Numbered from the stretch's first letter, positions 4,963 through 33,646 are shown. The stretch is DNA of 64,000 nt from a virus (IMGVR_UViG_3300038393_001148); one strand, 5' to 3'. Made by a program: numbers and translations. The notes: a model not told the origin generated them from the sequence alone.

Positions 4963-5216
4963 GCATCCGGGGAAAAGACTACATAATCTCGTGCCGCCAT
5001 GGGCACGAGGATACTCTCCATCAAGCCGGAGATTGCAGAGAATGTCTTAAGCGTGGCCGCAAGGAATCCGCTTTCCGCCTCTGGAAAGACGGAACGATAG
5101 AGACTTACTATGATCAGCCATTGCCTCCCATGTGCCGCTGCGCAGAGTGCGACAAGTTCATCGCGGCCAGCGATGATTATCTCTGCGAAGACTGTAGAGT
5201 CCAGGTGGATAGATGA
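4956..5216 (+). CDS. Double zinc-binding protein (CRHGHE...CRECL plus CAECDKFIAASDDYLCEDCR). Paralog of 2985..3239.
   Basis: Track ORF of 86 aa. Confidence 0.65.
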   Translation: MVGIRGKDYIISCRHGHEDTLHQAGDCRECLKRGRKESAFRLWKDGTIETYYDQPLPPMCRCAECDKFIAASDDYLCEDCRVQVDR

Positions 5217-7591: not shown

Positions 7592-7890
7592 ATAAGTCTC
7601 AACTCCTTGGATACACCTTCTTCACAGGTGACTCAAAACGATATATCATCCTTGAATGCAGCCCTCCCCATCCTGGCATGATAGAGGTGTACGGATGTCT
7701 TCCAGGGACGCTTCAACCAAATTTGCACGGCGATCATTCTCCCTGGGAAATCGACACATTGGTTAATTGCTTTAAACAATACCCCTGGACGATGGATGTC
7801 TTTGGATTTGGACTTGAGTATATTTATCCCCTCCGTCCTACCGCAGAGCAATTTTACGAAATGCTGAGAAGATCCGATGCTCTCGCATGA
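7588..7890 (+). CDS. '...RPTAEQFYEMLR' family protein, copy 3. Its C-terminal motif is shared with 5412..5705 and 5953..6243.
   Basis: Track ORF of 100 aa. Confidence 0.55.
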   Translation: MNKSQLLGYTFFTGDSKRYIILECSPPHPGMIEVYGCLPGTLQPNLHGDHSPWEIDTLVNCFKQYPWTMDVFGFGLEYIYPLRPTAEQFYEMLRRSDALA

Positions 7891-7970
7891 AGAGACATAG
7901 GATTGCCGCCCAGGGAGATTATTTGTGCGGAACCTGCCGCGTGCTTGACGAGAATATTTCGCCCTGGTAA
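7887..7970 (+). CDS. 27-aa micro-ORF carrying the family signature (MKRHRIAAQGDYLCGTCRVLDENISPW). It is either a degenerate relic or a functional mini-copy.
   Basis: Hand translation. Its ATG overlaps the stop of 7588..7890 (ATGA). Confidence 0.3.
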   Translation: MKRHRIAAQGDYLCGTCRVLDENISPW

Positions 7971-7980
7971 CCTTGGCGCA

Positions 7981-8340
7981 ATGCCCTACGTTTCTTACGC
8001 CAAGATGGTCTCGCCTGGTCGGACTAGCGTCTATCATATCGCAGAACGTTATGTCGGTCGGACTCGCTGGTCCCCGTGCTGCGGGGCTCATAACTACGGA
8101 CAAAGAATCTCTCTTCGAGACCTTACTGAGTCGGATGCCTCTCTCAGGGAGTGCAAGCAATGCGCTCAGATCATCTTAAAGCGTCGATCAGCTATTGACA
8201 AGCTTATAGGTCCAACGGGAACCTCAAAGCTGGTCCTTATGGATCTTGAAAGGGCCGTGGACGAATACGACATGGCAGATACCGTCTTCGGCCACGTCGT
8301 CAAGGACATTGTGTTGAAGCACTATCATCAGGAGGAATAG
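7981..8340 (+). CDS. Hypothetical Cys-rich protein (CCGAHNYG...CKQCAQ)
   Basis: Track ORF 7903..8340. An internal Met is preferred because the 5' part overlaps the micro-ORF in another frame. Confidence 0.35.
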   Translation: MPYVSYAKMVSPGRTSVYHIAERYVGRTRWSPCCGAHNYGQRISLRDLTESDASLRECKQCAQIILKRRSAIDKLIGPTGTSKLVLMDLERAVDEYDMADTVFGHVVKDIVLKHYHQEE

Positions 8341-8663
8341 TGCCTTTCACAGTTACCGGGTCCACGCGGGTCTATCGACATCAGGTCATTAGTTCTGGAA
8401 AGACTGTACATGTCGAAATCGAGATCAGCGATGCCCAAGTCTACGCTTGGCACGCCCAACTAGAAGCTGAGCGTGAAGCTCGCCTAAGGGAAGACGCTAC
8501 CTCCATCTGTAGCGACTGCGAAAGCCGTCCTAGTCAAGATGGAGACTACCTTTGCAAAGAGTGTCGTGACCTGCTAGACTACGTTCCTCCCGAGCCTGTG
8601 ATAGATGAGCTAGAGAAGCTTCGTCTTGAGGCTATGGAAGAAGGATATAGGTCTGCCATATGA
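8340..8663 (+). CDS. Zinc-ribbon family paralog (CSDCESRPSQDGDYLCKECRDLL)
   Basis: Track ORF of 107 aa. Confidence 0.55.
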   Translation: MPFTVTGSTRVYRHQVISSGKTVHVEIEISDAQVYAWHAQLEAEREARLREDATSICSDCESRPSQDGDYLCKECRDLLDYVPPEPVIDELEKLRLEAMEEGYRSAI

Positions 8664-8789
8664 AAATCCAACGAATCAGAAACACCAAGACTTTCGCCTT
8701 TCGCGTCACCACGAAGAAGGGCACCAAGGTCATCTCCCGACATCGGCTGAAGCTGCGCACTCCGAAGCTTCCTCCAAAGAGGAGGCAAG

Positions 8790-9161
8790 ATGGCTACGGA
8801 GGCTGACGTTCTCCCCGGTTCGGTATGGGAGTACAAGGACACCCAGGTGCAGGTCGAGGTGGTGAAGCGAAACGGAAATTTGGGTACTTGGCGGGTAACG
8901 TCATATCCAACCTACCCCTTATACGACGGAAAGTATTGGTACACCGGCAATACTGTTTCAAGTCTTGTCCGTAATGCGTATTTAGTTCAAGATGATCCTC
9001 AAGAAGGTGAGCTAACCGATCTTGACGTTATGAATTATCACGTCGCTGATAGCCCCGTGAAGAGGATTTCCCGTTCTCGCGGAGACTTCATTATCCATTT
9101 AGAGGACGCAATCCTAATCGCGTCAGGCCTGAAGCTTAAACTGGTGAAGGACGATGAGTAA
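8790..9161 (+). CDS. Hypothetical 123-aa protein
   Basis: Track ORF with a strong Shine-Dalgarno sequence (AAGAGGAGG) 5 nt upstream. Confidence 0.5.
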   Translation: MATEADVLPGSVWEYKDTQVQVEVVKRNGNLGTWRVTSYPTYPLYDGKYWYTGNTVSSLVRNAYLVQDDPQEGELTDLDVMNYHVADSPVKRISRSRGDFIIHLEDAILIASGLKLKLVKDDE

Positions 9162-9336
9162 GGTAATCCAAGAGGGAAACACCCTCAAGCTGAGGGGCCA
9201 AGGCTTTGGCACCATGACAGAGGCCGGTTCCGGCGAGAAGCAACTCATGAGCCTTATCTCTGCCATCGGCGTGACCTCCCCGGAAGAGAAGCAGGAGTGG
9301 ATGAATGGGTTTATTCCGCCGACGAGAGAAGACTGA
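9154..9336 (+). CDS. Hypothetical 60-aa protein
   Basis: Track ORF, coupled to the flanking genes. Confidence 0.3.
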   Translation: MSKVIQEGNTLKLRGQGFGTMTEAGSGEKQLMSLISAIGVTSPEEKQEWMNGFIPPTRED

Positions 9337-9679
9337 GGAGCTACGGATGAGATATCCAGCAGACTTGGCTGCCGAGTGGTATATGGAATCGGTTAATGCG
9401 CAGCCTGATGACCATAAGAGGTGGACTCGGGTCTTTATTCAGATCCGCCGCCCCGGTCGTGATAGTGTTTGCGACTTTGGGTCCGTGGACATTCGAGATC
9501 CCTCCTTTGAAACAAATTACAAGGAACTTGTGAATAAAGCACGGAAGCGTGTGGACCTACTAATAAGTTTCACTGGCGATGGAGAGCCACCAGAAGGTAT
9601 CTGCGCCGAATGCGGCGGGGACGCTTCAGCCAACGATTTCCTCTGCGAGACCTGTAGGAAGTCAGCCTCCGCAATATAA
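9305..9679 (+). CDS. Zinc-ribbon family paralog (CAECGGDASANDFLCETCRK)
   Basis: Track ORF of 124 aa. Confidence 0.55.
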   Translation: MGLFRRREKTEELRMRYPADLAAEWYMESVNAQPDDHKRWTRVFIQIRRPGRDSVCDFGSVDIRDPSFETNYKELVNKARKRVDLLISFTGDGEPPEGICAECGGDASANDFLCETCRKSASAI

Positions 9680-9686
9680 TCTTTGT

Positions 9687-10115
9687 ATGCCTTGGGAAGA
9701 CGTAGCACAGCCATCTGACATTACCGTCCATCGCCCTAATCCAGAGATGGATCCTTTCTACGATGGGCGAGGCGGGAACGACTATGAGGGTTTCCGAGGA
9801 AGAATCCCCCTAATCTACAACCCGCGAGAACGTCAGATTTGGACCGGCGAGCCCAACTGGTTTCACCATGACACCATCGAACATCATGGGCTTACCTCTA
9901 GCCAGTCGAGTCGTTATAATTATGATACGGCCTACCATGGATACTTTAATGGCGGGCCTGAGTGGGGCAGGGGAGAGCTAAGGTGGTATAATACTCCCCC
10001 CGAACCGGGGGCGCACGAGAACGTTGTTAATGCTCTAACCCAGGCTGGCTATCAGGTTAATCCCCAGACTCAAGCAGACGACCTAGAGAACGACGATCTC
10101 TGGGAAGACGACTAG
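9687..10115 (+). CDS. Hypothetical protein rich in W, Y and G, starting MPWEDVAQ
   Basis: Track ORF 9579..10115. The internal Met lies just after the upstream stop. Confidence 0.4.
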   Translation: MPWEDVAQPSDITVHRPNPEMDPFYDGRGGNDYEGFRGRIPLIYNPRERQIWTGEPNWFHHDTIEHHGLTSSQSSRYNYDTAYHGYFNGGPEWGRGELRWYNTPPEPGAHENVVNALTQAGYQVNPQTQADDLENDDLWEDD

Positions 10116-10151
10116 ACACGAAAAGGTCTGTTTGCTAGCCTTTCAGGCTGA

Positions 10152-10676
10152 ATGCCTGATAAGCCGCTACTACTACTTGATGTTGACGGAGTGCTGTGTC
10201 CCTTCGAAGGGATGATGCGCTATGAGAAGGCCGCTGGCCTAGATGTGGAAGGGATCCCCGGCTTCGAATGGAGCGAGTGGGGATGCGTTTTCTGGCGCAA
10301 GGAGAACGCTGAGCGCGTCCGCCGTCTCGCCCAATCCTTCGAGATCCATTGGTGTACGGGATGGTGCGAGGACGCCAACGAGATTATCTCTCCGCTCCAT
10401 GGCCTCCCCTCCTTCCCGGTCGTCCCGCTAGAGACAGCCTCCTATCTCGGCCAACACGACATCCACTGGAAGCACTCTGCTATCGAAGAATATGTCGGGG
10501 ATCGCCCCTACGCCTTTATCGATGACGACATCACTCATAAGGGCGTAGAGTACGCCGAGAGACGCGGCGTCCCGACGCTGTGGGTCCATACCCGCCCGAG
10601 CGAGGGCATTCTCGATAAACATGTCGAGAAGCTTGAAGAATTCGCGCGTCTTTGCGAGAATGTTTCCGATGCCTAA
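10152..10676 (+). CDS. HAD-superfamily phosphatase-like protein
   Basis: Motif I LLLDVDGVL (DxDGxL) and motif IV FIDDD are read in the translation. Confidence 0.65.
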   Translation: MPDKPLLLLDVDGVLCPFEGMMRYEKAAGLDVEGIPGFEWSEWGCVFWRKENAERVRRLAQSFEIHWCTGWCEDANEIISPLHGLPSFPVVPLETASYLGQHDIHWKHSAIEEYVGDRPYAFIDDDITHKGVEYAERRGVPTLWVHTRPSEGILDKHVEKLEEFARLCENVSDA

Positions 10677-11121
10677 CCCGCCCTTCGGCCTCCCGGCCAC
10701 GCTTGATTCGGCCATCGAGGTCTGGAAGCACCGCAACCTCACCAAGGAGCAGCGGGCGCAGTTCAAGGATAAAAAGCTGATACGGATTGCCTACCCGTAT
10801 CAGCCCATGGGAAACTATATCGGCTCCCCCCGCGCGACTGGCAGCCGCCCTTGGTACCCGCACCCGCATGAGGTGCGACCATGTTGCTGGGATGTCAAGG
10901 CAACATCCGTCAATTTCTTTACCTGGACCTGGCATAACCACTGCCGCACCGCCCGCCATGTAGCCCACCTATTCGACGTGAGCGAGGTCGAGCTACGTCG
11001 TCATGTGGGAATAAAGTCGGCCCCGTCACACTGTTCATGCGGGCGTTTCCGGCCCAAGGCCGACTATTTGTGCGGAAAGTGTCGAGAGAAGTTCCTTGAC
11101 ACCGAAATTTTGGACAAGTAG
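10669..11121 (+). CDS. Zinc-ribbon family paralog (CSCGRFRPKADYLCGKCREKF)
   Basis: Track ORF 10621..11121. The Met at 10669 (MPNPPF) overlaps the stop of the HAD gene. Confidence 0.55.
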   Translation: MPNPPFGLPATLDSAIEVWKHRNLTKEQRAQFKDKKLIRIAYPYQPMGNYIGSPRATGSRPWYPHPHEVRPCCWDVKATSVNFFTWTWHNHCRTARHVAHLFDVSEVELRRHVGIKSAPSHCSCGRFRPKADYLCGKCREKFLDTEILDK

Positions 11122-11131
11122 GCTTGTCACC

Positions 11132-12091
11132 ATGACAAAACAGAGTAGTACCAAGTTCTATGCCCTAGCCGTGCTCACCGTGGTTGGTGTGATCGTGGCG
11201 CTGTGGCTGTTCTTCTCATGGATCGGCGCATTCCAGAACCCCAAGCCGGGGAACGTTGGCATCTGCCAGCACACCGGGTGGAAGGGTTCGGGCACCTGCG
11301 GTGTCCTCCCGGCCGGTTCCAAGAAGAAGAACATCGGCATCCAGAACGAGCTTCGCAACCTGCCGATCACTCAGCGAAATTACTTGCTGACGGCAGACGC
11401 GGCTCGCTCGGATTCCAAGAACGTCGATAACGTGGTCCTCCCGACCGCTGACGGCGTGCGCGTGGGGATCGAGGGACAGGCGTTGTTCACCCTGGACGGC
11501 GATCCCAACAAGGCGCTGAGCTTCTACAAGAAGTTCTACCAGTTCAGCCCTTGGACCAGCAACGGATGGTCGTCCTGGCTGGACGTTCGCTTCCGTCCCA
11601 TCCTTGAGAACGCTCTACGTGAGGAAGTCGGCGGATATAACTGCACCGATCTCAACCCGTCCTGCGTGGCAATCAAGGGCGGCGCTGCGAATGGGACGAA
11701 GGCCAATGCCAATATCTCGCTCATCCAGGGCCGGATCGCGGACCAGCTTCGTCAGGATCTCAAGGACCGTCTCGGCGAGGAGTATTTCGTCAATGTACAG
11801 TTCCAGTTGACGAAGGTGACTCTTCCGGGCCTTCAGGACGAAATCGACCGCTACAACGCGGCGAAGGCGTCCCAGGCCACTGCGCAGGCCCGTGCAGAGC
11901 AGGTCAAGCAGGTCGCCATCGGCGAGCGCCAGGCTGCCGAGGAGAAGGCCAAGGGCATCCGTGCCCTGAACGAGGCCTACAAGAACTCCACGACCAAGGC
12001 ACAGATCGACGCCATCGCGGCCCTCCCGCGTAACCTCCAGACTCTCGTCCTCGGCGGGAGCGGAACCGGGCTCACGAAGCTCATCAAGTAG
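11132..12091 (+). CDS. SPFH/band-7-like membrane protein
   Basis: It has an N-terminal TM helix (FYALAVLTVVGVIVALWLFF). The central domain and the A/E/K/Q-rich C-terminal tail ending ...RNLQTLVLGG resemble prohibitin/HflC-type proteins. Track ORF 11096..12091. Confidence 0.5.
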   Translation: MTKQSSTKFYALAVLTVVGVIVALWLFFSWIGAFQNPKPGNVGICQHTGWKGSGTCGVLPAGSKKKNIGIQNELRNLPITQRNYLLTADAARSDSKNVDNVVLPTADGVRVGIEGQALFTLDGDPNKALSFYKKFYQFSPWTSNGWSSWLDVRFRPILENALREEVGGYNCTDLNPSCVAIKGGAANGTKANANISLIQGRIADQLRQDLKDRLGEEYFVNVQFQLTKVTLPGLQDEIDRYNAAKASQATAQARAEQVKQVAIGERQAAEEKAKGIRALNEAYKNSTTKAQIDAIAALPRNLQTLVLGGSGTGLTKLIK

Positions 12092-12098
12092 TACAACT

Positions 12099-12141
12099 AG
12101 GGCGAACGGTTCTGGGGAGGGTTCGATTCCCTCCCGCCCTA
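12099..12141 (+). other. tRNA-like minihelix: a T-arm (GAGGG-TTCGATT-CCCTC) stacked on a 6–7 bp acceptor-like stem (AGGGCGA/CCGCCCT). It lies 8 nt after the stop of the SPFH gene.
   Basis: Read directly: tAGGGCGAacggttctgGGGAGGGTTCGATTCCCTCCCGCCCTaa. The T-loop GTTCGATTCC is canonical, but the element is too short (43 nt) to be a complete tRNA. Confidence 0.45.
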
Positions 12142-12183
12142 ATATGACTAAGTACCTGACAATTCAAACTCAGGACGGCCAGG

Positions 12184-12564
12184 ATGCCTGAGCGATGGGA
12201 GCAGAAGACCACTAAGACACCGGGCCCGCGTCGGCAGATCACGCTGGACATCGGCGAGCGCTCGATTACATCCTTGCTCACGGGTGAGAAGGCCGACCGC
12301 ATCTGGATCACCGAGAACGACGATGGCTCCTACGGTCTGCACGCCACCACCCCGGTGGGCGTGACCCGCGCCGCTGGCGTCAAGCCGGTCTCTGACGTTG
12401 TGGTCGAGTGCATGAACGAACTGGTTGACAGCATCAACGCCAACCTGGACGAGATGCCGCAGCCGGTGCTCGACACGCTCGACAGGGTGACCGAGCGCTA
12501 CCTCAACTACAACGGCGAGGTCGCCGAGGCCAACGCTTCTGACGACGATCCGGAGTGTAGGTAA
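12184..12564 (+). CDS. Hypothetical 126-aa acidic protein
   Basis: Track ORF. Confidence 0.45.
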   Translation: MPERWEQKTTKTPGPRRQITLDIGERSITSLLTGEKADRIWITENDDGSYGLHATTPVGVTRAAGVKPVSDVVVECMNELVDSINANLDEMPQPVLDTLDRVTERYLNYNGEVAEANASDDDPECR

Positions 12565-12565
12565 T

Positions 12566-12850
12566 ATGCAGCGCCTAGCAGAAACGGCACTCTTCTTGTT
12601 CGTCATCTTCATGGTGATCCTCTTCCTGGCCTGGCTCTATGACCGGGCTCGGAAGCAGATCCGGTGGACTGTCGTCCGGGAAGAGACGGACGCTTTTACC
12701 GAGTTTTGGATCGCCAAGGGACGCCAGCGCAAGCATATTGGTCGCGCCCGAGTGGAGGCCGATAACTACGACGAGCACCTAGCGGAGCTAGAGGCCGAGG
12801 CCGAGGACCAGCGCGACAGACGCAATCAGGCCGAGTCGGCGCTACCGTGA
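12566..12850 (+). CDS. Hypothetical protein with an N-terminal TM helix
   Basis: Track ORF. The N-terminus reads LFLFVIFMVILFLAWLY. Confidence 0.45.
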   Translation: MQRLAETALFLFVIFMVILFLAWLYDRARKQIRWTVVREETDAFTEFWIAKGRQRKHIGRARVEADNYDEHLAELEAEAEDQRDRRNQAESALP

Positions 12851-13320
12851 CCATGCGGATTCCTGACGGGATCCCCGACATCCCTCCGTACCACATAGAA
12901 GAGAGAATTATGCTTGGAGAATTGAAGTTCGATTTCAGTCGCACCGAGATCATGGAGCGAGTGAAGGAAAACCGCGATAAGCATGCTGAAGAATTCGCTG
13001 TCGCGCTGAAGGGCTACTACCTGGAGGTTCAGGAGCAGCTTGAGAAGATCGCTGAGGAGGCGCAGAAGGCTTCCGTAAAGGCGGGCAAGGAGAAGGACCC
13101 CAAGTCTCTCACCTACTCCGTCAATGCGCGTAAGCCCGAGGATCACACCGGCGACTACGACCGGATTCTCGATATGCTTCGCCTGGCGAAGAACGAGAAC
13201 ATCGAACTGGACGAGCAGGAGTTCGCCCAGTACGTCCGCGACGAATGGGCCTGGAAGCAGCGCTTCACCGAGACCTCCTCTACCTATCTCTCCAAGTTCG
13301 GAACGAGGATCAGCGGATGA
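12847..13320 (+). CDS. Hypothetical coiled-coil protein (157 aa)
   Basis: Track ORF. Confidence 0.45.
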   Translation: MTMRIPDGIPDIPPYHIEERIMLGELKFDFSRTEIMERVKENRDKHAEEFAVALKGYYLEVQEQLEKIAEEAQKASVKAGKEKDPKSLTYSVNARKPEDHTGDYDRILDMLRLAKNENIELDEQEFAQYVRDEWAWKQRFTETSSTYLSKFGTRISG

Positions 13321-13505
13321 CGGTGAGGGATATGTCGCTGACGGAGATGTCTCCAAAGAAGATCCGCCTTCTTAGGGACTTCGGTCCTTATTCGAAGGGG
13401 GAGGTGGGGGATCTCTACAAGAGAGATGATGAACTCGCCTGGGTATATTTTGATGGGGATGACAAGCGCATCCTCTTCCACGACGAATACGAAGACGTGA
13501 AGTGA
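13317..13505 (+). CDS. Hypothetical 62-aa protein
   Basis: Track ORF 13245..13505. The Met at 13317 overlaps the upstream stop (ATGA). Confidence 0.35.
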   Translation: MTVRDMSLTEMSPKKIRLLRDFGPYSKGEVGDLYKRDDELAWVYFDGDDKRILFHDEYEDVK

Positions 13506-13690
13506 GCCAGATTTCTATTGTGGTGACCCTGAAGAAGGGAGCCAGCGTTGCCGCCGTACAGACGGGGCTGCGCAACGCCGGATTTGATCAGAAGCTCGCA
13601 ACCGACACCAGCTTCTATGGGACCATCGATGAGGACCAGTACAGGAACCTCGCGGTGATCACGGGTATTGATTCCGTCAAGCCCATGTGA
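13502..13690 (+). CDS. Hypothetical 62-aa protein
   Basis: Track ORF. Confidence 0.35.
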   Translation: MSQISIVVTLKKGASVAAVQTGLRNAGFDQKLATDTSFYGTIDEDQYRNLAVITGIDSVKPM

Positions 13691-14115
13691 TGTTCCCTGC
13701 TTCTGACACGGTATATGGCCTGCCTGTAGCGAAACTACAGGCAGGCGATTCCATTATCGGCCAGGATGATAGAGAATATCTGATCGAAGAAATAACGCCT
13801 CGTTGGGCCAACGCCCGCACGCGCGCAGAGGCCTCATTGACTGGTGACCTATTGACCGGCTTTGACATTAAGGCGCTTGATGTCAACGGGCTCGCGGTAA
13901 AGACCTTCATCGCGAAGAATGCCCGTCTCAACGCGATTAAACGACGCATCGATGACGAAGACGCCGAACGCCTCTTCGGAATTAAGGTGTGTCTTGAGTG
14001 CGAAGAGATGCGTTCAATCGCTCGTTACTGGGCCGACGACGACTATATCTGCAAAGTGTGTAGGGGGGACACTCATGAAACGGAAGCTTCATTTCAACCG
14101 CGCCAGCCACGATAG
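13687..14115 (+). CDS. Zinc-ribbon family paralog (CLECEEMRSIARYWADDDYICKVCRGD), directly upstream of the AAA+ ATPase
   Basis: Track ORF of 142 aa. Confidence 0.55.
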   Translation: MMFPASDTVYGLPVAKLQAGDSIIGQDDREYLIEEITPRWANARTRAEASLTGDLLTGFDIKALDVNGLAVKTFIAKNARLNAIKRRIDDEDAERLFGIKVCLECEEMRSIARYWADDDYICKVCRGDTHETEASFQPRQPR

Positions 14116-14116
14116 T

Positions 14117-15121
14117 ATGGAGGTTGCGGAGTATTTCGCCGCAATGTCTAATAAGCTGGAGTTTAACCATACGCAAAGGGCAGGCTGGGCGACGGATTTT
14201 AAGAATCTCGACCATCTTCCCTTTCAGGTGGCATCCCATCGCGGAGATGGTTATTGCTATGCGCTCTGCCATGAAGAGCACTTTGTAGCGCTTTACTATC
14301 TCAGCAACGGGACCGTTTGGCTTACCGTTGCTGCTCGAACTGCCGACCATCTTAGTAACTTCCAAAGTCTCAAGGATGCTGTGCCTGAGGCTAAGCACGA
14401 AGATGATCGCGTGGTATTCAAGTTCTGGGTCCAGACGCAGAACGGCCCAAGCAACTCAAACCGCAAGCTCGAAGCCCCAACCTGGGACGAGATCCGCGAT
14501 AACTACTCTGGGCTTATTCTTCCCGAGCTTGACACCCTTATGCAGGCTAAGGATGGCGAGGAGCTACGGGATGGGCGACTGCATCTCTGGCGTGGTGCTC
14601 CGGGAACCGGGAAGACCTACGCCATCCGAGCGATGGCCCGCGCCTGGCAGGATTGGTGCGATTTCCATTTCGTAGTGGACCCCGACCAGTTTTTTGGGCA
14701 CGGAGCCGACTACATGATGAAGGTCATCATGAGTGGGAGCGAGGACCGCTGGAAGATCTTGGTATTGGAGGACTCTGGCGAGTTGCTTGCCGCCGACGCG
14801 AAGCAACAAGCAGGCCAAGGGCTTTCCCGCTTGCTCAACGTGGTAGACGGGGTTCTCGGCCAAGGCCTGAAGCTAATGGTTCTGGTGACCACGAACGAGG
14901 ATCTTCAGGTTCTCCACGAAGCCGTCACGAGGAACGGGCGCTGCGCGTCCTGTCTCGCCTTCGATCCGCTGACGGGGCAGGAGGCCCGCGAGTGGCTTCG
15001 CGCCCGCGACTATAAGGGCGCAGTCCCAAGTCGGGAGGCCTCGGTATCTGAGCTTTATGCCATCCTCAAGGGTGAAGAACTAGAAACACAGAGCCCACGG
15101 AAAGCTATCGGCTTCGCCTAG
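14117..15121 (+). CDS. Classical-clade AAA+ ATPase
   Basis: Walker A GAPGTGKT and Walker B ILVLEDSGE are read in the translation. The LLNVVDG and VLVTTNEDLQ...RNGR sensor/arginine-finger region also matches. Track ORF 13919..15121, with the start taken after the upstream stop (an alternative start is at 14075). Confidence 0.7.
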   Translation: MEVAEYFAAMSNKLEFNHTQRAGWATDFKNLDHLPFQVASHRGDGYCYALCHEEHFVALYYLSNGTVWLTVAARTADHLSNFQSLKDAVPEAKHEDDRVVFKFWVQTQNGPSNSNRKLEAPTWDEIRDNYSGLILPELDTLMQAKDGEELRDGRLHLWRGAPGTGKTYAIRAMARAWQDWCDFHFVVDPDQFFGHGADYMMKVIMSGSEDRWKILVLEDSGELLAADAKQQAGQGLSRLLNVVDGVLGQGLKLMVLVTTNEDLQVLHEAVTRNGRCASCLAFDPLTGQEAREWLRARDYKGAVPSREASVSELYAILKGEELETQSPRKAIGFA

Positions 15122-15157
15122 CTTGCAACCCACGTAAGACCCTGGTACGCTACACAC

Positions 15158-15511
15158 ATGAGTAAGAAGGTCCCCCAGTCCACGCTCACTCCTTTGACCG
15201 AAGAGCAGATCAAGGAGCTTGCGCTCGGCATCTTCCGCAACGAGATCTTCACGGATCGGCACATCGATCCGCAGGACGCTCCGAGCATGCTCCGCAGCGT
15301 GTTCATGCCGCTGGGCTTTTTGGGGCGCAAGGAGATCCTGCACATGCAGCGCAAGCAACGTCCGGGGCTCTTCTACGCGCGCATGGATAAGGCGGGGCCT
15401 CGGAGCATCAACGGGTATCCGATGTTTTTCGAACTGAGCATGGCCTCTGAGGAAGATGCCGCCAAGGTCTGGGAAGAATATTCCCGCCTAGACAAGGCTG
15501 TGGAAGACTGA
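15158..15511 (+). CDS. Hypothetical 117-aa protein
   Basis: Track ORF. Confidence 0.45.
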   Translation: MSKKVPQSTLTPLTEEQIKELALGIFRNEIFTDRHIDPQDAPSMLRSVFMPLGFLGRKEILHMQRKQRPGLFYARMDKAGPRSINGYPMFFELSMASEEDAAKVWEEYSRLDKAVED

Positions 15512-15949
15512 TACACTTTGAGATGAGCACGACGCCCATCATCTATGGACCGCTACCTTTGAGTCGCTAGTGGAGCAAAATCCTGTCGAGGGAAAGTAGC
15601 TATGAGCCTATGCGGATAAGTGTGTTAGACTCACGCTCTTAGGATGTGGCCGATCTTCGGATCTCTGTAGGTGGCGGTGGCCGCAAGGCGCTCTGCCGTA
15701 TCTGGTATAAAGCCAGGTCTTTTATTAGAGTCGGTATCCTTCGGGAGTCCGAATACGAGAGAGTTCGGTAAAGGTGCGGATAGAAATTAGGTGCGCAACT
15801 AATCCTATCCTATTAGTACTGTCAATAGATTGTTTCTGATACGAAGCCTCTGGCGGACTATCATCTAACAAATGAGACGGGAAATCCATAATTCAGGTTC
15901 TATATCGATGCAGGATTGGACCCCTGCGACCTGACGCGCTCTACTCTTT

Positions 15950-16135
15950 ATGTTTAAAACACTGTTGATCAACCACGCAATGGATCGCCCGCGAGCGGAT
16001 AGAGAGTTTCTTGAGGCCGTTGAGATCGCCCTTAACGAGCCGCCCGAAGATTACTACGTGTATGACGTACAATACGCCTGTATAGGTCATCTTCAGCGAG
16101 CGCTCATCATCTACAGCAAGATCCCGGTGTCATGA
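15950..16135 (+). CDS. Small protein (61 aa) ending ...ALIIYSKIPVS. Tandem paralog of 16132..16310.
   Basis: Track ORF. Confidence 0.4.
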   Translation: MFKTLLINHAMDRPRADREFLEAVEIALNEPPEDYYVYDVQYACIGHLQRALIIYSKIPVS

Positions 16136-16310
16136 GAGTAAATCACATCGTGGCCTCCAGTTCGTATGAGTTTCAAGTCGCGATTAACCAAGCACTAAAC
16201 AGCATTCCTTTCGGCCTATTTGTCCAAGAGGTCAAATATGCGGCTGCCTCTAAGGCATCAAACACCGAATATTCCGCGCTGATTATCTACGGCGACATTC
16301 CTGTCACCTA
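16132..16310 (+). CDS. Small protein (58 aa, MRVNHIVASSSYEF...ALIIYGDIPVT). Paralog of 15950..16135. Missed by the ORF cutoff.
   Basis: Hand translation. The ATGA overlap with the upstream stop and the shared C-terminal motif support it. Confidence 0.35.
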
Positions 16311-16316
16311 AATAAT

Positions 16317-16685
16317 GTGGCAACGGCGCGCTATGAAGTTCTCATCCCTAAAGTAGACAACCTAGGATCTCCCCTCCGGGATCTAGCATCTCCCGCGCTT
16401 GCATATATCACGCAGGCGCTTCAAGTCACTACGGCTCATATCGAACTAGGCCGCTCCGTCTATTGGGGTGGCCGCACAGAGCCCTTCGACGCCCTCGTCT
16501 TCACCGCCGAAGACAACCCCCAGGCCGACTCTTCCGCCAAGCAGCTTGGAGCCTACATTGGCGATGTAGCCAATCAGGATGTCATCCTTGTTTCCAAGGA
16601 CGGCAAGGCCGGTCTGCAATCCTGGCCGATAAAGAATAATCAGTATCGTCCCGGTGAAACAGCGGAACCTACTGCATTAGCTTAG
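16317..16685 (+). CDS. Hypothetical 122-aa protein
   Basis: Track ORF. Confidence 0.45.
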   Translation: MATARYEVLIPKVDNLGSPLRDLASPALAYITQALQVTTAHIELGRSVYWGGRTEPFDALVFTAEDNPQADSSAKQLGAYIGDVANQDVILVSKDGKAGLQSWPIKNNQYRPGETAEPTALA

Positions 16686-16718
16686 TTTCCTAGCCACCCG
16701 ACTTGGTTAAGAGTTAGG

Positions 16719-17030
16719 ATGGCTTACTTTGGAACGACAAGCGCGCTAGGTTCAAACGGGACCGTTACTATTGGACCGCGCCCTACCGACCGTGCCGATT
16801 ATCTATCGGGCATGGTCTTTGCCGATCAGGCTGGCACGATCTTTATCGAGCAGTCTGGGGACGGCCAGAACTGGGACCTCTCTACCTCTCACCCGGTGGT
16901 TGCTAACACCGGCCAAGGCTTTACCGAGCCTCTATATGGGCCGTACGTTCGCGTCCGCTATGTGAACGGTCCTACGGCTCAGGGAGCGCTACGGATCTTC
17001 GCCCGTTACACCTCGGCTGGAGACTCTTAA
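16719..17030 (+). CDS. Hypothetical 103-aa protein
   Basis: Track ORF. Confidence 0.45.
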   Translation: MAYFGTTSALGSNGTVTIGPRPTDRADYLSGMVFADQAGTIFIEQSGDGQNWDLSTSHPVVANTGQGFTEPLYGPYVRVRYVNGPTAQGALRIFARYTSAGDS

Positions 17031-20000
17031 TGCAGTGCGCCGATTGCGGCCATATTTGGACAGGTCCGGGATATGATCAAGAAATTCACTCAAGTTGTCC
17101 TCAATGCGGGTCATACCGCACTCAAGTCTCTCCGACGCATTCGGAAATAGAGATGAGGAACATGCCCGCGCCGGGAGAAGAGGATATGGGCGGGAACCCT
17201 TTGAAGGAGGGGATCCTTGCCGATGGCGGTTGGCAGAACCGCATGAAGCGAGATGAGTCATTCGCCAGCCTCAAGAAGAAGGCAATGGATGATTTTGATT
17301 GGGACGACGATGACGATATGGGTAATGCAGAGAACCCGTATCAACCCTATGAGACGCAAGAGCCTTATATTCACTCTCGTTTCATCGTCACCCCTAACGG
17401 TCAACTCCTGACTCCCAGCGAGCAACTTATGGCTGAAAAAGGTCCTGATCGAGTTTTCCATGAGGACATCGCCAACGAGCATGGGATCCCCAACTTCACC
17501 CAGGGCCACTCGCTCGGAACAGCCCTCAGCGATGGGACCGTTCACTTCGACGCGGGCAACGCATCGGGGCTCGACCCACAGACCTTGGCCTCGCTTGTGC
17601 ATCAACATTTTCCGAACCACCACCTCGATCCAAACAGCATCGCCGCTGCGCCCGCCAGCCAAGAAGAGCGCTTTGGTCTAGATAGACTCCCTTATACACC
17701 CCAAGAGCGTAATCAGTTGAACTTCGGAGACAAGCAGCGTCAGGAGCAACAGGCCGTTGACCAGCGGGGCGGCCGTCCCTTCAACTACTATGACAATCCT
17801 TACTTTAATCGTGGTGGATCTACTCGCGACCGCATGTATCTTCCTTGGTCGCTCGATACTGCAAAGATTGCAGCAGACTTCGATGTTGAACAAGTAATCC
17901 CGGCTGGTCCTCATACCGAGGAAGTAGATGTAGGAGAAGCCAACCCGCTGATCCTCCAGCACGACGATCCTAACGTGGTCGGGGACGCCAAGACCCGTCT
18001 GGAATCGGCGACCAAGACCTCATTCCTTCCGATGCTTCTCGGCCTCGCCGGTGGGGCACTAGGGGCGGAAGCGCTCGGGGGAGCGGCGGCGGGTCGCATC
18101 GGAGGGTCCTTGGCCGGTCACCTCGTGGGACGAGCCCTAGAAGGCGGTCCGGGCGGCGGAAACGCGGCCCTCAATGGCCCTTCGGAGGTCCAGCAGTCGT
18201 GGGACACGCTGTCATCTATCAAAGAGGCAGACTGGGCGCGTGACACTGGCAACTGGCTTAAGGACAACGTAACCACCCCGGCGCATAATACAATCTATAA
18301 GCTCATGGGAAGCCCCTTCGATGGCGGTTCGACGTTTGATCGAAACTACGAACGATACCTACGTCAGGGTATTCCGCCCTCCGAGGCGCGAGATCGTGCC
18401 GCGTTGGATGCTGGCACGATCACGCCAGAGCAATTCCAGCAGCGACAGCAATATCATCAGGAGCGACAGCTAAATAGTATTCCGACAGCCGACATGACTT
18501 GGGATGATCCACGCAACGCCGCCTTCTCCATCCATGAGCGCCTAGCGTATGATCACCCGTCTTCAAATCCCGGATACGACGACACGGACGATCCGGGGGA
18601 CGTGGACCAGCATGAGCATAACGATGGCGATCACACCAACTTCGATGACGACATCGACAGCGCTGGTGGATCCGATGGCTTCGATGTAAATTCTGAGCTT
18701 GGACAGGCGTTTGTCAACGCTCTTCCTTCGCTCATGAAGTACTATGACTCGCCGGAGTCTGGTAAGGACGATCCTGCTATCGCCAGCCTAGTCGAGGCGA
18801 TGGAGCGCGAGATGCCAGGGATGATCGGCGCGCAACCTTCTGATGATGATCTTAGGATGATCGATGAGGTTAAGGGTGGACATCAGGACGATAGCCAAAT
18901 TCCTCCGGGACATACGGCGGCAGGCGTTCCCGGAATCGGAATGGCTCCGGGCACCCAAACCTTAGCTCCGGTCGGACCTAACAATTCGATCAACCCGATG
19001 TCCCAGGGCTCATGCCCTCATTGCGGAGCTATGGTCACCCCTGGTCAGGGGGTATGCCCGCAATGCAACTCAGCCGTGAGTCCGATGCAGCAGGGCGCTA
19101 CGGCAGTTAATCCACAAGCTCCTGTAGGTCCCGCAGGGCAGGCTATGCAACCGGTTATGGCGGCTAACCAGGGTCCTCACAACCCTGAGCAGTTCCAGGC
19201 CGTCATGCAGTATCTCCAGCAGGAAGGTCGGGACGAACTTATTCCCGACCTTATTGAACATCCTGAAAACTATGGGGATATTCTAGCGGAGATTCAGGGT
19301 AAGAGCCAGCCGCCAAATCCCGATCCAGATCCGGGTCCAGCACCGCCTATGGATCCATCGATGATGATGCAGCAGGGGATGCCTTCGGGAGGAGGAGGTA
19401 TGCCTCCCCAGGGTATGCCGATGCAGGGCCGCGCAGGAGGAATCGGTTCACGTATGGAGATCGATCTTCCGTGCCCGCACTGCCATAAGACCGGAGGAGT
19501 CGGTTATTACCCATCGAGCCAAGATTGTCAGTGCCGAAATTGCGGTTACGAATTCCCCGCAGGTAATGACCAAGGGCGAGAGCAGCAAATGGATGTAGAA
19601 GATTACCGAAGCCCGGAAGGACTCGAACCCGCACCGGCAGGGCTCGGACCCATCCACCAAGGAGCGGCAGATCCGGTCACTCCTCCATGCCCGAAGTGTG
19701 GCTCTCACACCACCGGTATCATCACCGACTCCGGTCAGGCTCAGTGCTCCAACTGCAATCACAAGTGGCAGACCAACGTTGAGGTCCAGGGAGAGAAGAC
19801 TCCCGTGCAGCCGAAGGCCAGCGCAGAGAATCCTTGGGTCACTCAGGACGGCCAGCCGCTTGTTGTAGGACAAGAGTATGAGATGTACTCGTCCAAGTAT
19901 GATGTTCCGGACGTTGTGAAGATTACTGCGGTCAAGCCCAACTCGATTGAGTACACGTTGACCGGAGCCTATGGCCTAGAGCACCGGACAGCGGTGACTC

Positions 20001-20740
20001 GTGAAGAGGCGCAGTTGGATGGACTCAGCTTTGTTTCCTCCGATGGCGCGGACGATATGGCTCCGGATACAAACCTCAATGAGCAGCAGCCCAACGATCA
20101 GATGCAGGTTCCGGCCGAGACCCATCAGGCTAACAGCGAGTCCGATGTTTGGTTACTGGTTTATCACTATGGGCTGGACGAGCGAACCGCCCGCGAGGTA
20201 TTAGCTGACCCCAAGACTCAGGGAATCGTCCAGCAGTGGAAGCAGGGTATCCCCGACGTTCAGACAGAACCGGGGCGCTCGATGCTCGATGAGTCGCCCT
20301 GGGATTTCCAAAACCGGAGGATGAAGGCCGCCCAGGCTCCGGGAAACGAAATAGACCCACAGGTTCTTCCTCATTTTCAGCAGGCATTCCAGCATGCTCG
20401 GCAAAATGGCGTAGATCAGGCTCACCAATTCCTACTTCAGAACCTACAACGGTACGATCCTCGACGGGCTACGAGCCTGGCTGATGACTGGCGAGCAAAG
20501 TATGACCGTCTCTTCGGCAACGGCGGGCCTATGGGCGAGCCTAATTTCGCTCCCAACGACGTTGGACCAAACGTACTTAAAATGGCGGGCAAGAAGTTCA
20601 CCCCGATGGAGCAGCGCGAATTCATCGATGAGCCGGGCAAGGCCCGCAATGCAGAGAAGCTAGACCTAGAAGGCACCCACTACACAGAAAGCCGCACCCA
20701 TAGCCTCCTAGATGATTCGTATTTCCTCTTTGGTCTATAA
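17030..20740 (+). CDS. Giant 1236-aa protein with four C-x2-C...C-x2-C zinc ribbons, acidic and P/Q-rich linkers and a glycine-zipper hydrophobic segment. Function unknown; it could be an internal virion or ejection protein.
   Basis: Ribbons read in the translation are CADC...CPQCGS, CPHCGAMV...CPQCNS, CPHCHKTGG...CRNCGY and CPKCGSH...CSNCNH. The glycine zipper is LLGLAGGALGAEALGGAAAGRIGGSLAG. Confidence 0.6.
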   Translation: MQCADCGHIWTGPGYDQEIHSSCPQCGSYRTQVSPTHSEIEMRNMPAPGEEDMGGNPLKEGILADGGWQNRMKRDESFASLKKKAMDDFDWDDDDDMGNAENPYQPYETQEPYIHSRFIVTPNGQLLTPSEQLMAEKGPDRVFHEDIANEHGIPNFTQGHSLGTALSDGTVHFDAGNASGLDPQTLASLVHQHFPNHHLDPNSIAAAPASQEERFGLDRLPYTPQERNQLNFGDKQRQEQQAVDQRGGRPFNYYDNPYFNRGGSTRDRMYLPWSLDTAKIAADFDVEQVIPAGPHTEEVDVGEANPLILQHDDPNVVGDAKTRLESATKTSFLPMLLGLAGGALGAEALGGAAAGRIGGSLAGHLVGRALEGGPGGGNAALNGPSEVQQSWDTLSSIKEADWARDTGNWLKDNVTTPAHNTIYKLMGSPFDGGSTFDRNYERYLRQGIPPSEARDRAALDAGTITPEQFQQRQQYHQERQLNSIPTADMTWDDPRNAAFSIHERLAYDHPSSNPGYDDTDDPGDVDQHEHNDGDHTNFDDDIDSAGGSDGFDVNSELGQAFVNALPSLMKYYDSPESGKDDPAIASLVEAMEREMPGMIGAQPSDDDLRMIDEVKGGHQDDSQIPPGHTAAGVPGIGMAPGTQTLAPVGPNNSINPMSQGSCPHCGAMVTPGQGVCPQCNSAVSPMQQGATAVNPQAPVGPAGQAMQPVMAANQGPHNPEQFQAVMQYLQQEGRDELIPDLIEHPENYGDILAEIQGKSQPPNPDPDPGPAPPMDPSMMMQQGMPSGGGGMPPQGMPMQGRAGGIGSRMEIDLPCPHCHKTGGVGYYPSSQDCQCRNCGYEFPAGNDQGREQQMDVEDYRSPEGLEPAPAGLGPIHQGAADPVTPPCPKCGSHTTGIITDSGQAQCSNCNHKWQTNVEVQGEKTPVQPKASAENPWVTQDGQPLVVGQEYEMYSSKYDVPDVVKITAVKPNSIEYTLTGAYGLEHRTAVTREEAQLDGLSFVSSDGADDMAPDTNLNEQQPNDQMQVPAETHQANSESDVWLLVYHYGLDERTAREVLADPKTQGIVQQWKQGIPDVQTEPGRSMLDESPWDFQNRRMKAAQAPGNEIDPQVLPHFQQAFQHARQNGVDQAHQFLLQNLQRYDPRRATSLADDWRAKYDRLFGNGGPMGEPNFAPNDVGPNVLKMAGKKFTPMEQREFIDEPGKARNAEKLDLEGTHYTESRTHSLLDDSYFLFGL

Positions 20741-20791
20741 CAAGCCAGAGTGTTACTTTAATCTTCCACTGAACCGAGAATAAAGAATAGA

Positions 20792-21586
20792 ATGCTTTAC
20801 GCAAAAAGAACAGTCCGTTGCTCCGCTGCTAACATGACGCGCGAGGCTGCCCAGAAGTCACTTAAGAAGAACTTCTCTGAGGCCGAGCTTTTAGATCTTA
20901 AGCGTCAGGGGAACCAATGGGTGGCGACCCTGCTTGAGCCCAAGCAGGCCGAATTCCCTCCCAAGAAGGATGATTCCGATAGCGCGCCCGAAGGCAACCC
21001 ATTCTCAGAAGACAAGAGCGACTCAGACTCCGGAGATTCCGGAGACGACTCGTCATCGAACGATGGCCCGCCATCCGATGACTCTAAGGGTCCAAAGCCT
21101 CCTAAGGAAGATGGATCGAAGGGCGAAAAGGGCGAGCTAGCCGCCGTTCTCGATCTCATCACCCAGATCGCCGACAAGCTAGGAATCGTCCCTGGCGGCG
21201 ACCCGATGGCTCCCGGAGCAGAGGATCCAATGGCGGACCCGATGGCTGGCCCGCCCGCGCCTCCTGCGGGACCTCCCGGTGCCGGTGGCCCTCCGGGTCC
21301 AGGTCACGGCAATGAGATCCTTCATCGTACAAAGCTAAAGCCCGGCGAAACTCCTCCAGGAGGAACGCCCATTGGTGCCCCAGCTTTCGCGAGTACACAA
21401 AGCTCTGAGCATGAGCAGTTGGCTCGCATGGCTTCGTTCGACGCCTTTGACGACACCCCTGGCAAGTCCATTAGGCAGGCTCACGATGAGCTAACCGCGC
21501 TTTATGGACCGCATGGATTCGCTGTCCGTCAAATTAAGCGCGTCGAGGGTGGCCGTCGTCTTGCCGCCAAACTCTCCAGAAAGTAA
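20792..21586 (+). CDS. Low-complexity acidic Ser/Asp/Pro-rich protein (264 aa)
   Basis: Track ORF. Confidence 0.5.
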   Translation: MLYAKRTVRCSAANMTREAAQKSLKKNFSEAELLDLKRQGNQWVATLLEPKQAEFPPKKDDSDSAPEGNPFSEDKSDSDSGDSGDDSSSNDGPPSDDSKGPKPPKEDGSKGEKGELAAVLDLITQIADKLGIVPGGDPMAPGAEDPMADPMAGPPAPPAGPPGAGGPPGPGHGNEILHRTKLKPGETPPGGTPIGAPAFASTQSSEHEQLARMASFDAFDDTPGKSIRQAHDELTALYGPHGFAVRQIKRVEGGRRLAAKLSRK

Positions 21587-33202: not shown

Positions 33203-33646
33203 ATGGCTGATTTTGTTTTCAATATTGCTAAGGGTAAGGTGAAGTATTATACGGAGCTTCCGGCTGCCAATGATGCCCTAATAGTGATCCCTCTAGAGGC
33301 TACGGGTATAGAGGCGGATACAACACTTAAGGACTACGACGATGTTGCTACTCTTCTCGCTGGTACCTCTAACGAGCAGACGACAATGGGGCGTAAGACT
33401 GCGGCCAGTGTTGTCAACACAGTGGACGATACTAATGATCGTCTAGACACAGATATGGCAGACATAACCTGGACGGCAGCAACAGGTAACGCGCTGGCTT
33501 GCATTATTGTTTGTTACGACCCTGATACAACCACCGGTACAGACTCTAGCCTAATCCCGTTGACTAAGCATGACTTTGCACTCACCCCTGATGGTAGCGA
33601 TATCACGGCCGTGATTGCTACAACAGGTTTCTTTAGGGCAACGTAA
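33203..33646 (+). CDS. Hypothetical protein (147 aa)
   Basis: Track ORF with an AAGGAGAGAG Shine-Dalgarno sequence. Confidence 0.5.
   Translation: MADFVFNIAKGKVKYYTELPAANDALIVIPLEATGIEADTTLKDYDDVATLLAGTSNEQTTMGRKTAASVVNTVDDTNDRLDTDMADITWTAATGNALACIIVCYDPDTTTGTDSSLIPLTKHDFALTPDGSDITAVIATTGFFRAT

Follow-up and report, generated by a model that had tools for sequence, protein, structure and literature searches.

The stretch of DNA analysed here (the window) comprises 64,000 nucleotides of a viral genome, IMGVR_UViG_3300038393_001148, and represents a large myovirus, with a prohead protease, a major head protein, a tail sheath, baseplate and fibres encoded between 22 and 60 kb. At 12099-12141 on its plus strand, immediately after a gene of the SPFH family, lies an element of about 43 nt (coordinates verified in the sequence) that has the form of the top half of a transfer RNA (tRNA). 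This minihelix is one instance of a widespread, unannotated class of structured RNA. The strands around it run in the order AAG TAG (12089-12091), TACAAC T, AGGGCG, A, ACGGTTCTGGG, GAGGG, TTCGATT, CCCTC, C, CGCCCT, A ATATG, and 7 nt separate the SPFH stop codon from the start of the helix. The parts of the element and the neighbouring genes are the following:

11132-12091, + strand: SPFH/Band_7 gene, 319 aa as called in public assemblies (Pfam Band_7, 3.2e-12), with its stop TAG at 12089-12091
12098-12100, + strand: second TAG, in frame with the SPFH stop, overlapping the first helix bases and 3 nt before G6, the spacing typical of the class
12099-12104, + strand: acceptor-like helix, 5' strand AGGGCG, pairing with 12135-12140 over 6 bp; G12104 is the invariant "G6"
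12105-12116, + strand: linker AACGGTTCTGGG, 12 nt, which replaces two tRNA arms
12105-12111, + strand: A12105 (A7) and the linker core AACGGTT (A-R-Y-G-G-U-U), the core being identical in the distant phage contig L006
12112-12116, + strand: variable part of the linker, CTGGG, differing in length and sequence across the family
12117-12121 with 12129-12133, + strand: stem of the T-arm, GAGGG/CCCTC, 5 bp, from sequence and fold
12122-12128, + strand: T loop TTCGATT, 7 nt, from sequence and fold
12134, + strand: unpaired C of the "7:66" layer, facing A12105; 0-2 unpaired nt are found here across the family
12135-12140, + strand: acceptor-like helix, 3' strand CGCCCT, complement of 12099-12104
12141, + strand: A at the discriminator position, which could alternatively pair with T12098
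12184-12564, + strand: next gene, 126 aa, no family match, its ATG 43 nt past the element

The first-pass annotation of this locus had proposed a T-arm stacked on an acceptor-like stem, i.e., the 3' top half of a tRNA placed directly behind the SPFH gene, and both the position and this structural reading were borne out. The acceptor-like stem, given there as 6-7 bp, has six pairs, with T12098-A12141 as a possible seventh, while A12105, which had been written together with the 5' strand, is unpaired and stands opposite C12134. The stack of the window element amounts to 6 + 1 + 5 = 12 layers, and its T-arm is canonical for a tRNA, having a 5-bp stem, a 7-nt loop with T54 T55 C56 R57 A58 and the pair G53:C61. 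The stretch acggttctg, noted merely as a spacer, is in fact the most informative conserved part of the element and is D-loop-like, which had been missed. Since all genes flanking the element are on the plus strand and there is no promoter-like or terminator-like site close by, the element lies inside an operon. It is not an intrinsic terminator itself: it is followed by AATATGAC, without a U tract, and the terminator scan was empty at this place. A small hairpin (CCTGA-caattcaaac-TCAGG) is present at 12156-12175 (+), between the minihelix and the ATG of the next gene at 12184.

When the isolated 59 nt were folded, the structure was exactly the proposed shape, with an energy of -22.5 kcal/mol (z = -2.0 against shuffles). 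Since this energy is only two standard deviations below the shuffled sequences, the minimum free energy structure of the 161-nt context differs from the proposed fold, and the T-loop word GGTTCRAWTCC is present a single time in the 64 kb, with 0.23 occurrences expected, the sequence of the window alone fails to show more than a hairpin. The thermodynamics being unremarkable, the significance of the element comes from the comparison with other sequences.

Searches against known RNA families did not assign the element. That it is too short for a tRNA gene, as had been stated, agrees with its 43 nt and with ARAGORN, which finds neither a tRNA nor a transfer-messenger RNA (tmRNA) in the whole 64-kb window; at 22 related loci no element was called as a tRNA either, and the checked elements lie outside tRNA arrays. 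In Rfam 15 there is no family for the element even at E values up to 10, and the only similarities are below the gathering score: the best is tmRNA (RF00023; 21.3 bits, the gathering score being 47, in an alignment that leaves out most of the model), and a weak one to mascRNA / MEN-beta (RF01684; 16.8 bits against a gathering score of 42.5) covers exactly 12099-12140. A tRNA or tmRNA gene was therefore rejected as an identity, as was an aminoacylation identity of the alanine type, since the G3:U70 pair is absent; the window has G12101-C12138 at this place, and no G-U is found there in 35 family members. The element has no tag reading frame of the mRNA-like type and no encoded CCA. A megablast search with 10-14 kb of the window found no annotated phage relative, and a copy from Staphylococcus was likewise without a match.

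The closest sequences are of little help, as four contigs (L002-L005) are nearly identical to the window and carry the element with 100% identity, which makes them uninformative. An identical (100%) 319-aa SPFH protein, P0001, is present on metagenomic contigs of up to 165 kb. The decisive relative is L006, a distant phage contig whose SPFH protein is 36% identical and which carries the element AGGGTGAACGGTGCAGGCGGGTTCGACTCCCGCCCACCCT directly after the SPFH stop codon. It is parsed as AGGGTG-A-ACGGTGCAG-GCGGG-TTCGACT-CCCGC-C-CACCCT, with the same architecture as in the window. Between the two, the acceptor pair 5:68 changes from C-G in the window to T-A and the T-stem pair 50:64 from A-T to C-G, while the start of the linker (GAACGGT) and the A-opposite-C mismatch (A7xC66) are common to both. 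The element is about 80% identical although the surrounding SPFH coding DNA aligns poorly, and the genes 3' of it are non-homologous. These compensatory changes at the same site rule out a chance hairpin, the outcome that the first-pass annotation had named as the refutation of its finding, and argue against a decaying tRNA remnant.

The element is not general to SPFH genes. Bacterial SPFH homologues (GC content 0.57-0.73, mostly about 0.72) lack it, and in the phage-like SPFH loci L039-L045 the next gene follows 7-24 nt past the stop codon, with no copy anywhere in the locus; no relatives of the SPFH protein were found in IMG/VR. Two genes upstream of SPFH the window encodes HAD_SAK_2 ("HAD domain in Swiss Army Knife RNA repair proteins"; 10152-10676, +). 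The order HAD_SAK_2, one open reading frame (ORF), SPFH is kept in the phage-like loci L043 (HAD_SAK_2 gene at 2040-2537) and L044 (HAD_SAK_2 gene at 1863-2414), which have no minihelix, and in L043 no intervening ORF is called between the two genes. A link of this neighbour to RNA-end chemistry is possible.

To place the element in a wider family, IMG/VR was scanned with the pattern GAACGGT-N(3-12)-GGTTCGANTCC, in which neither helix is specified, and at least 120 loci were obtained. Among the matches listed, about half are ordinary tRNAs and the rest are minihelices of the same design, with at least 47 distinct viral minihelices that have five or more contiguous acceptor pairs. Their helices differ from each other and are complementary all the same (e.g., AGCCGG/CCGGCT, CCCACG/CGTGGG, GGAGTG/CACTCC, GGTCGG/CCGACC). 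A similar pattern, applied to one genome per prokaryotic species, gave at least 128 matches; 38 of the 128 among the matches listed are minihelices by the same measure, compared with about 2% by chance (three registers at (6/16)^5 each). A scan on structure only is too noisy for a census, as pieces of genuine tRNAs also pass. The pattern also caught the 3' ends of tmRNAs in Clostridia contigs (L179, L185, L250, L245, L193 and L256), which read AACGGTTTTCGGAC-[T arm]-CCTCCACCA; the word AACGGUU is found both in the minihelix linker and in the tmRNAs of these taxa, 5' of their T-arm, by coincidence or by a shared structural logic.

Overall, at least 80 distinct copies were collected from viral contigs and from prophage-like, Mu-like and integrative conjugative element (ICE)-like regions of many bacterial phyla. 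The hosts include Firmicutes and relatives (Streptococcus, Staphylococcus, Lachnospiraceae, Acholeplasmataceae), Bacteroidota (Parabacteroides, Odoribacter, Dysgonomonas, Pedobacter, Chitinophagaceae), Actinobacteria (four species of Glycomyces, Kribbella, Amycolatopsis), as well as Chloroflexi, Bdellovibrionales and Neisseria. Among annotated phages, only Streptococcus phage SA-TP2 (PQ571305; host S. salivarius) has members of the family, at about 20336-20377 and 20672-20715, and they are unannotated there.

Covariation was evaluated on an alignment of 35 non-redundant members in the commonest register (A4). The number of double-change cells was 133, compared with 41 +/- 5 in shuffles of the 35 sequences, and the covariation score was 0.86, compared with 0.16 when shuffled and at most 0.27 when the 3' partners were slid by 1-3 columns. 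It can be seen that 8 of the 11 pairs vary on both sides, with all four Watson-Crick types at seven of them and three types at the eighth. In the acceptor-like helix, four of the six pairs (2:71-5:68) take all four types, 12 of the 35 members lack pairing at the outermost position 1:72, and G6:C67 is invariant (35/35); in the T stem, the three outer pairs covary, while G52:C62 and G53:C61 are fixed. The overall figure of 96% paired positions is partly a product of the pairing filter, which does not hold for the diversity of pair types. A covariance model (R2) built on 33 members from other phages and hosts, from which the window and L006 were excluded, scored 52.1 bits (E 2.7e-13) on window positions 12099-12142 and 43.5 bits on L006. 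With a model that includes the window sequence (R1) and with filters off, the next-best match in the window reached only 14 bits, and the window therefore holds exactly one copy.

We define the members of this class, for which we use the term elbow minihelix, by a closing helix of 5-8 bp with free sequence that ends in G6:C67, an unpaired A, a linker and a T-arm. The class measures 40-47 nt, and the linker, of 10-18 nt, begins with A-R-Y-G-G-U-U. The window element shows all of these features (AGGGCG/CGCCCT, the unpaired A12105, AACGGTT, TTCGATT and 12 layers), lies on the coding strand and is recognised by the model from which it had been held out. As GAACGGT was fixed in the search pattern, the conservation of the linker among the primary matches is circular; the additional off-pattern copies that the model or the structure-only scan detected at the loci of these matches have AATGGTT (ten copies), AGTGGTT (two copies), ATGGTCC and AATGGAG. 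The T loop is UUCGAYU throughout the class, and its position 59 is always U or C, as in tmRNA, in contrast to the purine of the tRNAs that the pattern picked up. The stack of helix, mismatch and T stem has 11-13 layers, most often 12, as in tRNA.

In the D loop of tRNA, the order of bases is A14, R15, Y16/17, G18, G19 and U20, and G18 and G19 dock on psi55 and C56 of the T loop, which forms the elbow. By this analogy, the linker A-R-Y-G-G-U-U is probably a D-loop mimic without a stem, in which the two G residues would act as G18 and G19 and dock on the T loop. The element would then consist of the acceptor stem and the elbow, that is, everything that the tRNA enzymes which read shape (RNase P, RNase Z, the CCA-adding enzyme, TruB and TrmA) contact, and nothing that is needed for decoding.

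The bases around the helix were also compared. Of 43 non-redundant members (L046-L286), 24 have A directly 3' of the helix, "AC" is found there in 20 of the 43, compared with about 3 expected, as part of an enriched A-C-A, and the base 5' of the helix is A in 23 of them. The full ACCA occurs in a single copy, from Staphylococcus (L243). At this place the window has AAT (or ATA) and L006 has CTT, so that the A-C(-A) motif of the class is absent in both.

The position of the copies with respect to genes is regular. They are always on the same strand as the flanking ORFs and usually begin 0-10 nt past a stop codon, and the next start codon is typically 19-45 nt past the helix. Thirty-six distinct elements have an ORF on their 5' side, and in 23 of these 36 the distance from the end of the stop codon to G6 is 3-7 nt, which means that the stop codon abuts the 5' strand of the helix or falls within it. 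There is no fixed protein partner, as the neighbouring genes are unrelated across the loci checked; the upstream genes encode SPFH, DUF1340 (in Streptococcus phages), an M42-like peptidase, HU and an FtsK/SpoIIIE-family protein, and in one setting the element stands directly before an MCM helicase gene. Upstream genes without mutual relation, together with the many host phyla, point to a universal host factor.

Several loci carry more than one copy. L132 (minus strand; reverse-complement coordinates 7652-11080) has five within 3.4 kb, every gap between its small genes containing one; three copies are present in L109, and in L272 a copy lies 8-9 nt past each of three small ORFs. In L132, three of the five copies have a short hairpin with a TCACAT loop (GGCATCACATTGCC, GGCGTCACATCGCC) within a few nt on their 3' side, just before the next start codon, and this hairpin looks like a second, lineage-specific intergenic motif. 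In Streptococcus phages, two copies separated by about 215-335 nt lie past the last early gene, and both fall in a stretch of 600-690 nt (L046 5455-6040; L166 4152-4796, SA-TP2) in which no gene is called and which ends at the gene of an ArpU-like late regulator. If both were cut, the approximately 170-290 nt between them could be released as a separate RNA.

Two further settings are found outside of ordinary tailed phages. In L177 (1815-5003), L188, L211 and L252, from several Bacteroidota genomes and one Bdellovibrionales genome, a minihelix lies immediately 5' of a gene for a protein of 670-713 aa with an rve (DDE) domain, followed by an AAA_22 ATPase; this pair is transposase A and B of Mu-like transposable prophages. 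Four species of Glycomyces (L172 6286-6328, L198, L234 and L241) have the element with conserved flanks between genes for an FtsK/SpoIIIE-family protein and DUF2637, a context that suggests an actinomycete integrative conjugative element (AICE-like) and not a phage.

Three explanations had been offered by the first-pass annotation: a phage attachment site (attP) core copied from the 3' end of a host tRNA, a substrate of RNase P, RNase Z or the CCA-adding enzyme that defines the end of a messenger RNA (mRNA), and a degraded tRNA gene. The second is favoured by the comparative evidence, because of the covarying conservation, the orientation on the coding strand, the position after stop codons and the multiple copies between genes. 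We suggest, from sequence comparison, that the minihelices are cutting sites for host tRNA-processing enzymes that punctuate polycistronic mRNA, and we give this a probability of about 0.5. Whatever reads these elements must occur in many phyla, ignore the sequence of the helix and need the T loop, the GG and a stack of about 12 layers, which is why the enzymes of tRNA maturation would fit. The element would fold inside the polycistronic transcript and would be recognised by these host enzymes by its shape, independently of helix sequence. RNase P would then cut at the 5' edge, just past the upstream stop codon (in the window, between T12098 and A12099), RNase Z or exonucleases would trim at the discriminator A12141, and the CCA-adding enzyme may complete the 3' end. 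This would part the SPFH cistron from the one downstream and free a small minihelix RNA, so that the stabilities of the neighbouring messages would become uncoupled, as with the RNase III sites of T7 and the t-elements of plant mitochondria. A more general proposal, to which we give rather less credence, is that mobile elements of many phyla (tailed and Mu-like phages, ICE/AICE-like elements) carry a dedicated elbow minihelix of 40-47 nt as a portable, host-independent punctuation by RNase P, RNase Z and the CCA-adding enzyme which cuts their operons, a bacterial counterpart of the tRNA punctuation of mitochondria, and that the released CCA-tailed RNAs may also serve as decoys.

Several points weigh against such processing. 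Cleavage at the edges of the element is entirely inferred; the acceptor helix mostly has just 5-6 bp and a mismatch, and in the 161-nt context the predicted structure is, as stated, another one. A cut by RNase P would leave the 3' end of the upstream mRNA unprotected at its stop codon, with no obvious advantage, and in about one third of the lineages the stop codon is inside the helix, so that cleavage at the edge could remove it. The A-C-A 3' of the helix is unexplained by the processing model, and it is missing in the window and in L006. Additionally, the pattern used to gather the family was derived from the window and L006, and a filter for pairing was applied afterwards, so that the percentage of paired positions and the conservation of the linker are partly built in; the sole evidence untouched by this collection bias is the diversity of pair types and the off-pattern copies.

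Most of these facts can also be read in other ways. The minihelix RNA, either released or still embedded, could be an abundant tRNA decoy that titrates a host factor which reads the acceptor end and the elbow, and in this way shields the mobile element; candidates for such a factor are toxins of defence systems that act on tRNA 3' ends by modification or cleavage (toxSAS such as CapRel/FaRel2, MenT, Cas12a3) or the partners of SmpB/tmRNA. The restriction of the class to mobile elements, often in early or accessory regions, would suit this, as would a helix that is free in sequence and fixed in shape, the A-C-(A) 3' of the helix at the place of A73-C74, and the best Rfam similarity being the tRNA-like domain of tmRNA, with the same UUCGAUU loop; moreover, two reports describe immunity that targets the tRNA acceptor (PMC11559606, PMC12851939). 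Nothing, however, ties the element to any defence or counter-defence gene, the single mRNA-embedded copy in the 64-kb window would be a poor stoichiometric sponge, and the tight placement between stop codons and ribosome-binding sites is left unexplained. As there is no G3:U70 or other identity set, charging is unlikely as well. We therefore regard a decoy as unlikely, and it is compatible with processing and not exclusive of it. Still less probable is an uncleaved structural cap, which would be a barrier to 3' exonucleases for the upstream message or, after an unrelated cleavage, a 5' stabiliser of the downstream one, with no part for tRNA enzymes. The location immediately 3' of ORFs and the GC-rich, stable fold (-22.5 kcal/mol) agree with a cap, and without U-tract terminators a separate stabiliser could be useful, but a plain hairpin would suffice for this, and the invariant T loop, the GG of the linker and the length of about 12 layers across phyla would have no explanation.

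Two alternatives remain. A module boundary or recombination sequence that acts at the DNA level, and whose conserved core at gene junctions would promote mosaic exchange between mobile elements, would fit the location at junctions of unrelated genes, and also that the window and L006 share the element next to SPFH but have different genes downstream of it. The strict strand bias, the compensatory changes, the pairing that tolerates G-U and the T loop of a tRNA nevertheless point to selection on an RNA fold, and make this very improbable. An attP core, or a tRNA gene stripped of its D and anticodon arms, is what could be expected from one match only: the 24-nt GAGGGTTCGATTCCCTCCCGCCCT (window 12117-12140) exactly matches the 3' part of a fragment resembling tRNA-Leu(TAA) on a single IMG/VR contig (L001), and the fact that this T-arm is common offers an explanation for the identity. 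Against both variants stand the complementary 5' strand which the element itself possesses, the same deletion-like architecture and conserved linker in at least 80 independent sequences with different helices, the compensation of both helices in L006, the recurrence at unrelated junctions with up to five copies in some loci, and the mid-operon position in a large myovirus. The remark in the first-pass annotation that no integrase is near also holds, as none of the ten ORFs scanned (9579-21586, i.e., 9.6-21.6 kb) matches an integrase family. We consider these two readings, which the first-pass annotation had listed as its other options, the least probable of all, with hardly any chance of being correct. 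The fragment on L001 (UViG_3300026320_000006, 4990-5140, minus strand) is a partial tRNA-Leu(TAA)-like sequence with the anticodon loop CTTAAAA, a long variable arm, the T-arm and the 3' acceptor strand; it is not called by ARAGORN, lies about 5 kb from the contig end and may be an att-site fragment of a prophage.

Elsewhere in the window, two very large ORFs (17030-20740 and 33646-37158, both +; 1236 and 1170 aa) are without a convincing Pfam or PHROG match, the former having only weak matches to zinc ribbons.

If tRNA enzymes do process these elements, many phages and conjugative elements would tune their expression through a signal that annotation pipelines miss, since tRNA finders pass over so short an element and no Rfam family covers it. 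The class would then be a widespread group of natural non-tRNA substrates of RNase P and RNase Z in bacteria, and it would account for many of the "empty" gaps of 70-100 nt between phage genes. It could also provide a compact, sequence-programmable and host-independent processing tag for synthetic operons, and a minimal natural design of the tRNA elbow, made of a stemless D loop and a T loop. Should the released RNA act as a decoy instead, the class would represent a novel type of RNA-based counter-defence.

The use of host RNA-processing enzymes on structured sites of phage transcripts has precedents. Phage T7 employs host RNase III at intergenic sites, and the C4 RNAs of P1/P7 and the CI RNA of P4 are processed by RNase P. 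Unlike the minihelices, these are irregular hairpins or antisense RNAs without a T loop, and the T7 sites use a different enzyme. The eukaryotic mascRNA is a tRNA-like structure excised from a longer transcript by RNase P and RNase Z, which makes the 3' end of the upstream RNA; it is nuclear and has a full cloverleaf-like fold with an anticodon-like arm, and the window element, with its 16.8 bits, is not a member of that family (RF01684). The t-elements of plant mitochondria are similarly tRNA-like folds that are not tRNAs, located beside protein genes in polycistronic transcripts, where tRNA endonucleases set the mRNA ends (PMC8003010), but they are organellar, heterogeneous and degenerate, whereas the minihelix class has a uniform length of 40-47 nt and a fixed D-loop-like linker, and its cleavage is so far a prediction. 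Among bacterial and phage noncoding RNAs, YrlA has a tRNA-like module; in M. smegmatis, this module is an in vivo substrate of RNase P to which CCA is added (PMC4201824). The D and T arms, Ro60-binding stem, rsr neighbour and length of more than 100 nt of YrlA are all absent in the window element. The tRNA-like domain of tmRNA shares the acceptor stem, a T-arm of the UUCGAUU type, a stemless D-loop analogue containing GG and the lack of an anticodon arm, and reduced tmRNAs of jakobid mitochondria are mentioned in one report (PMC3590771). It differs in that the window element has no G3:U70, no tag or mRNA-like domain and no CCA, scores below the gathering threshold, lies between ORFs and belongs to a class that is multicopy at some loci. 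A description of such elements was not found in the full-text literature (open-access papers and preprints only, so that an earlier account is possible), and the minihelices apparently form an undescribed, distinct and compact class, tied to mobile elements and of the tRNA-like processing or mimicry kind. In function they would be most like the t-elements and mascRNA, while in shape they are most like the tRNA-like domain of tmRNA.

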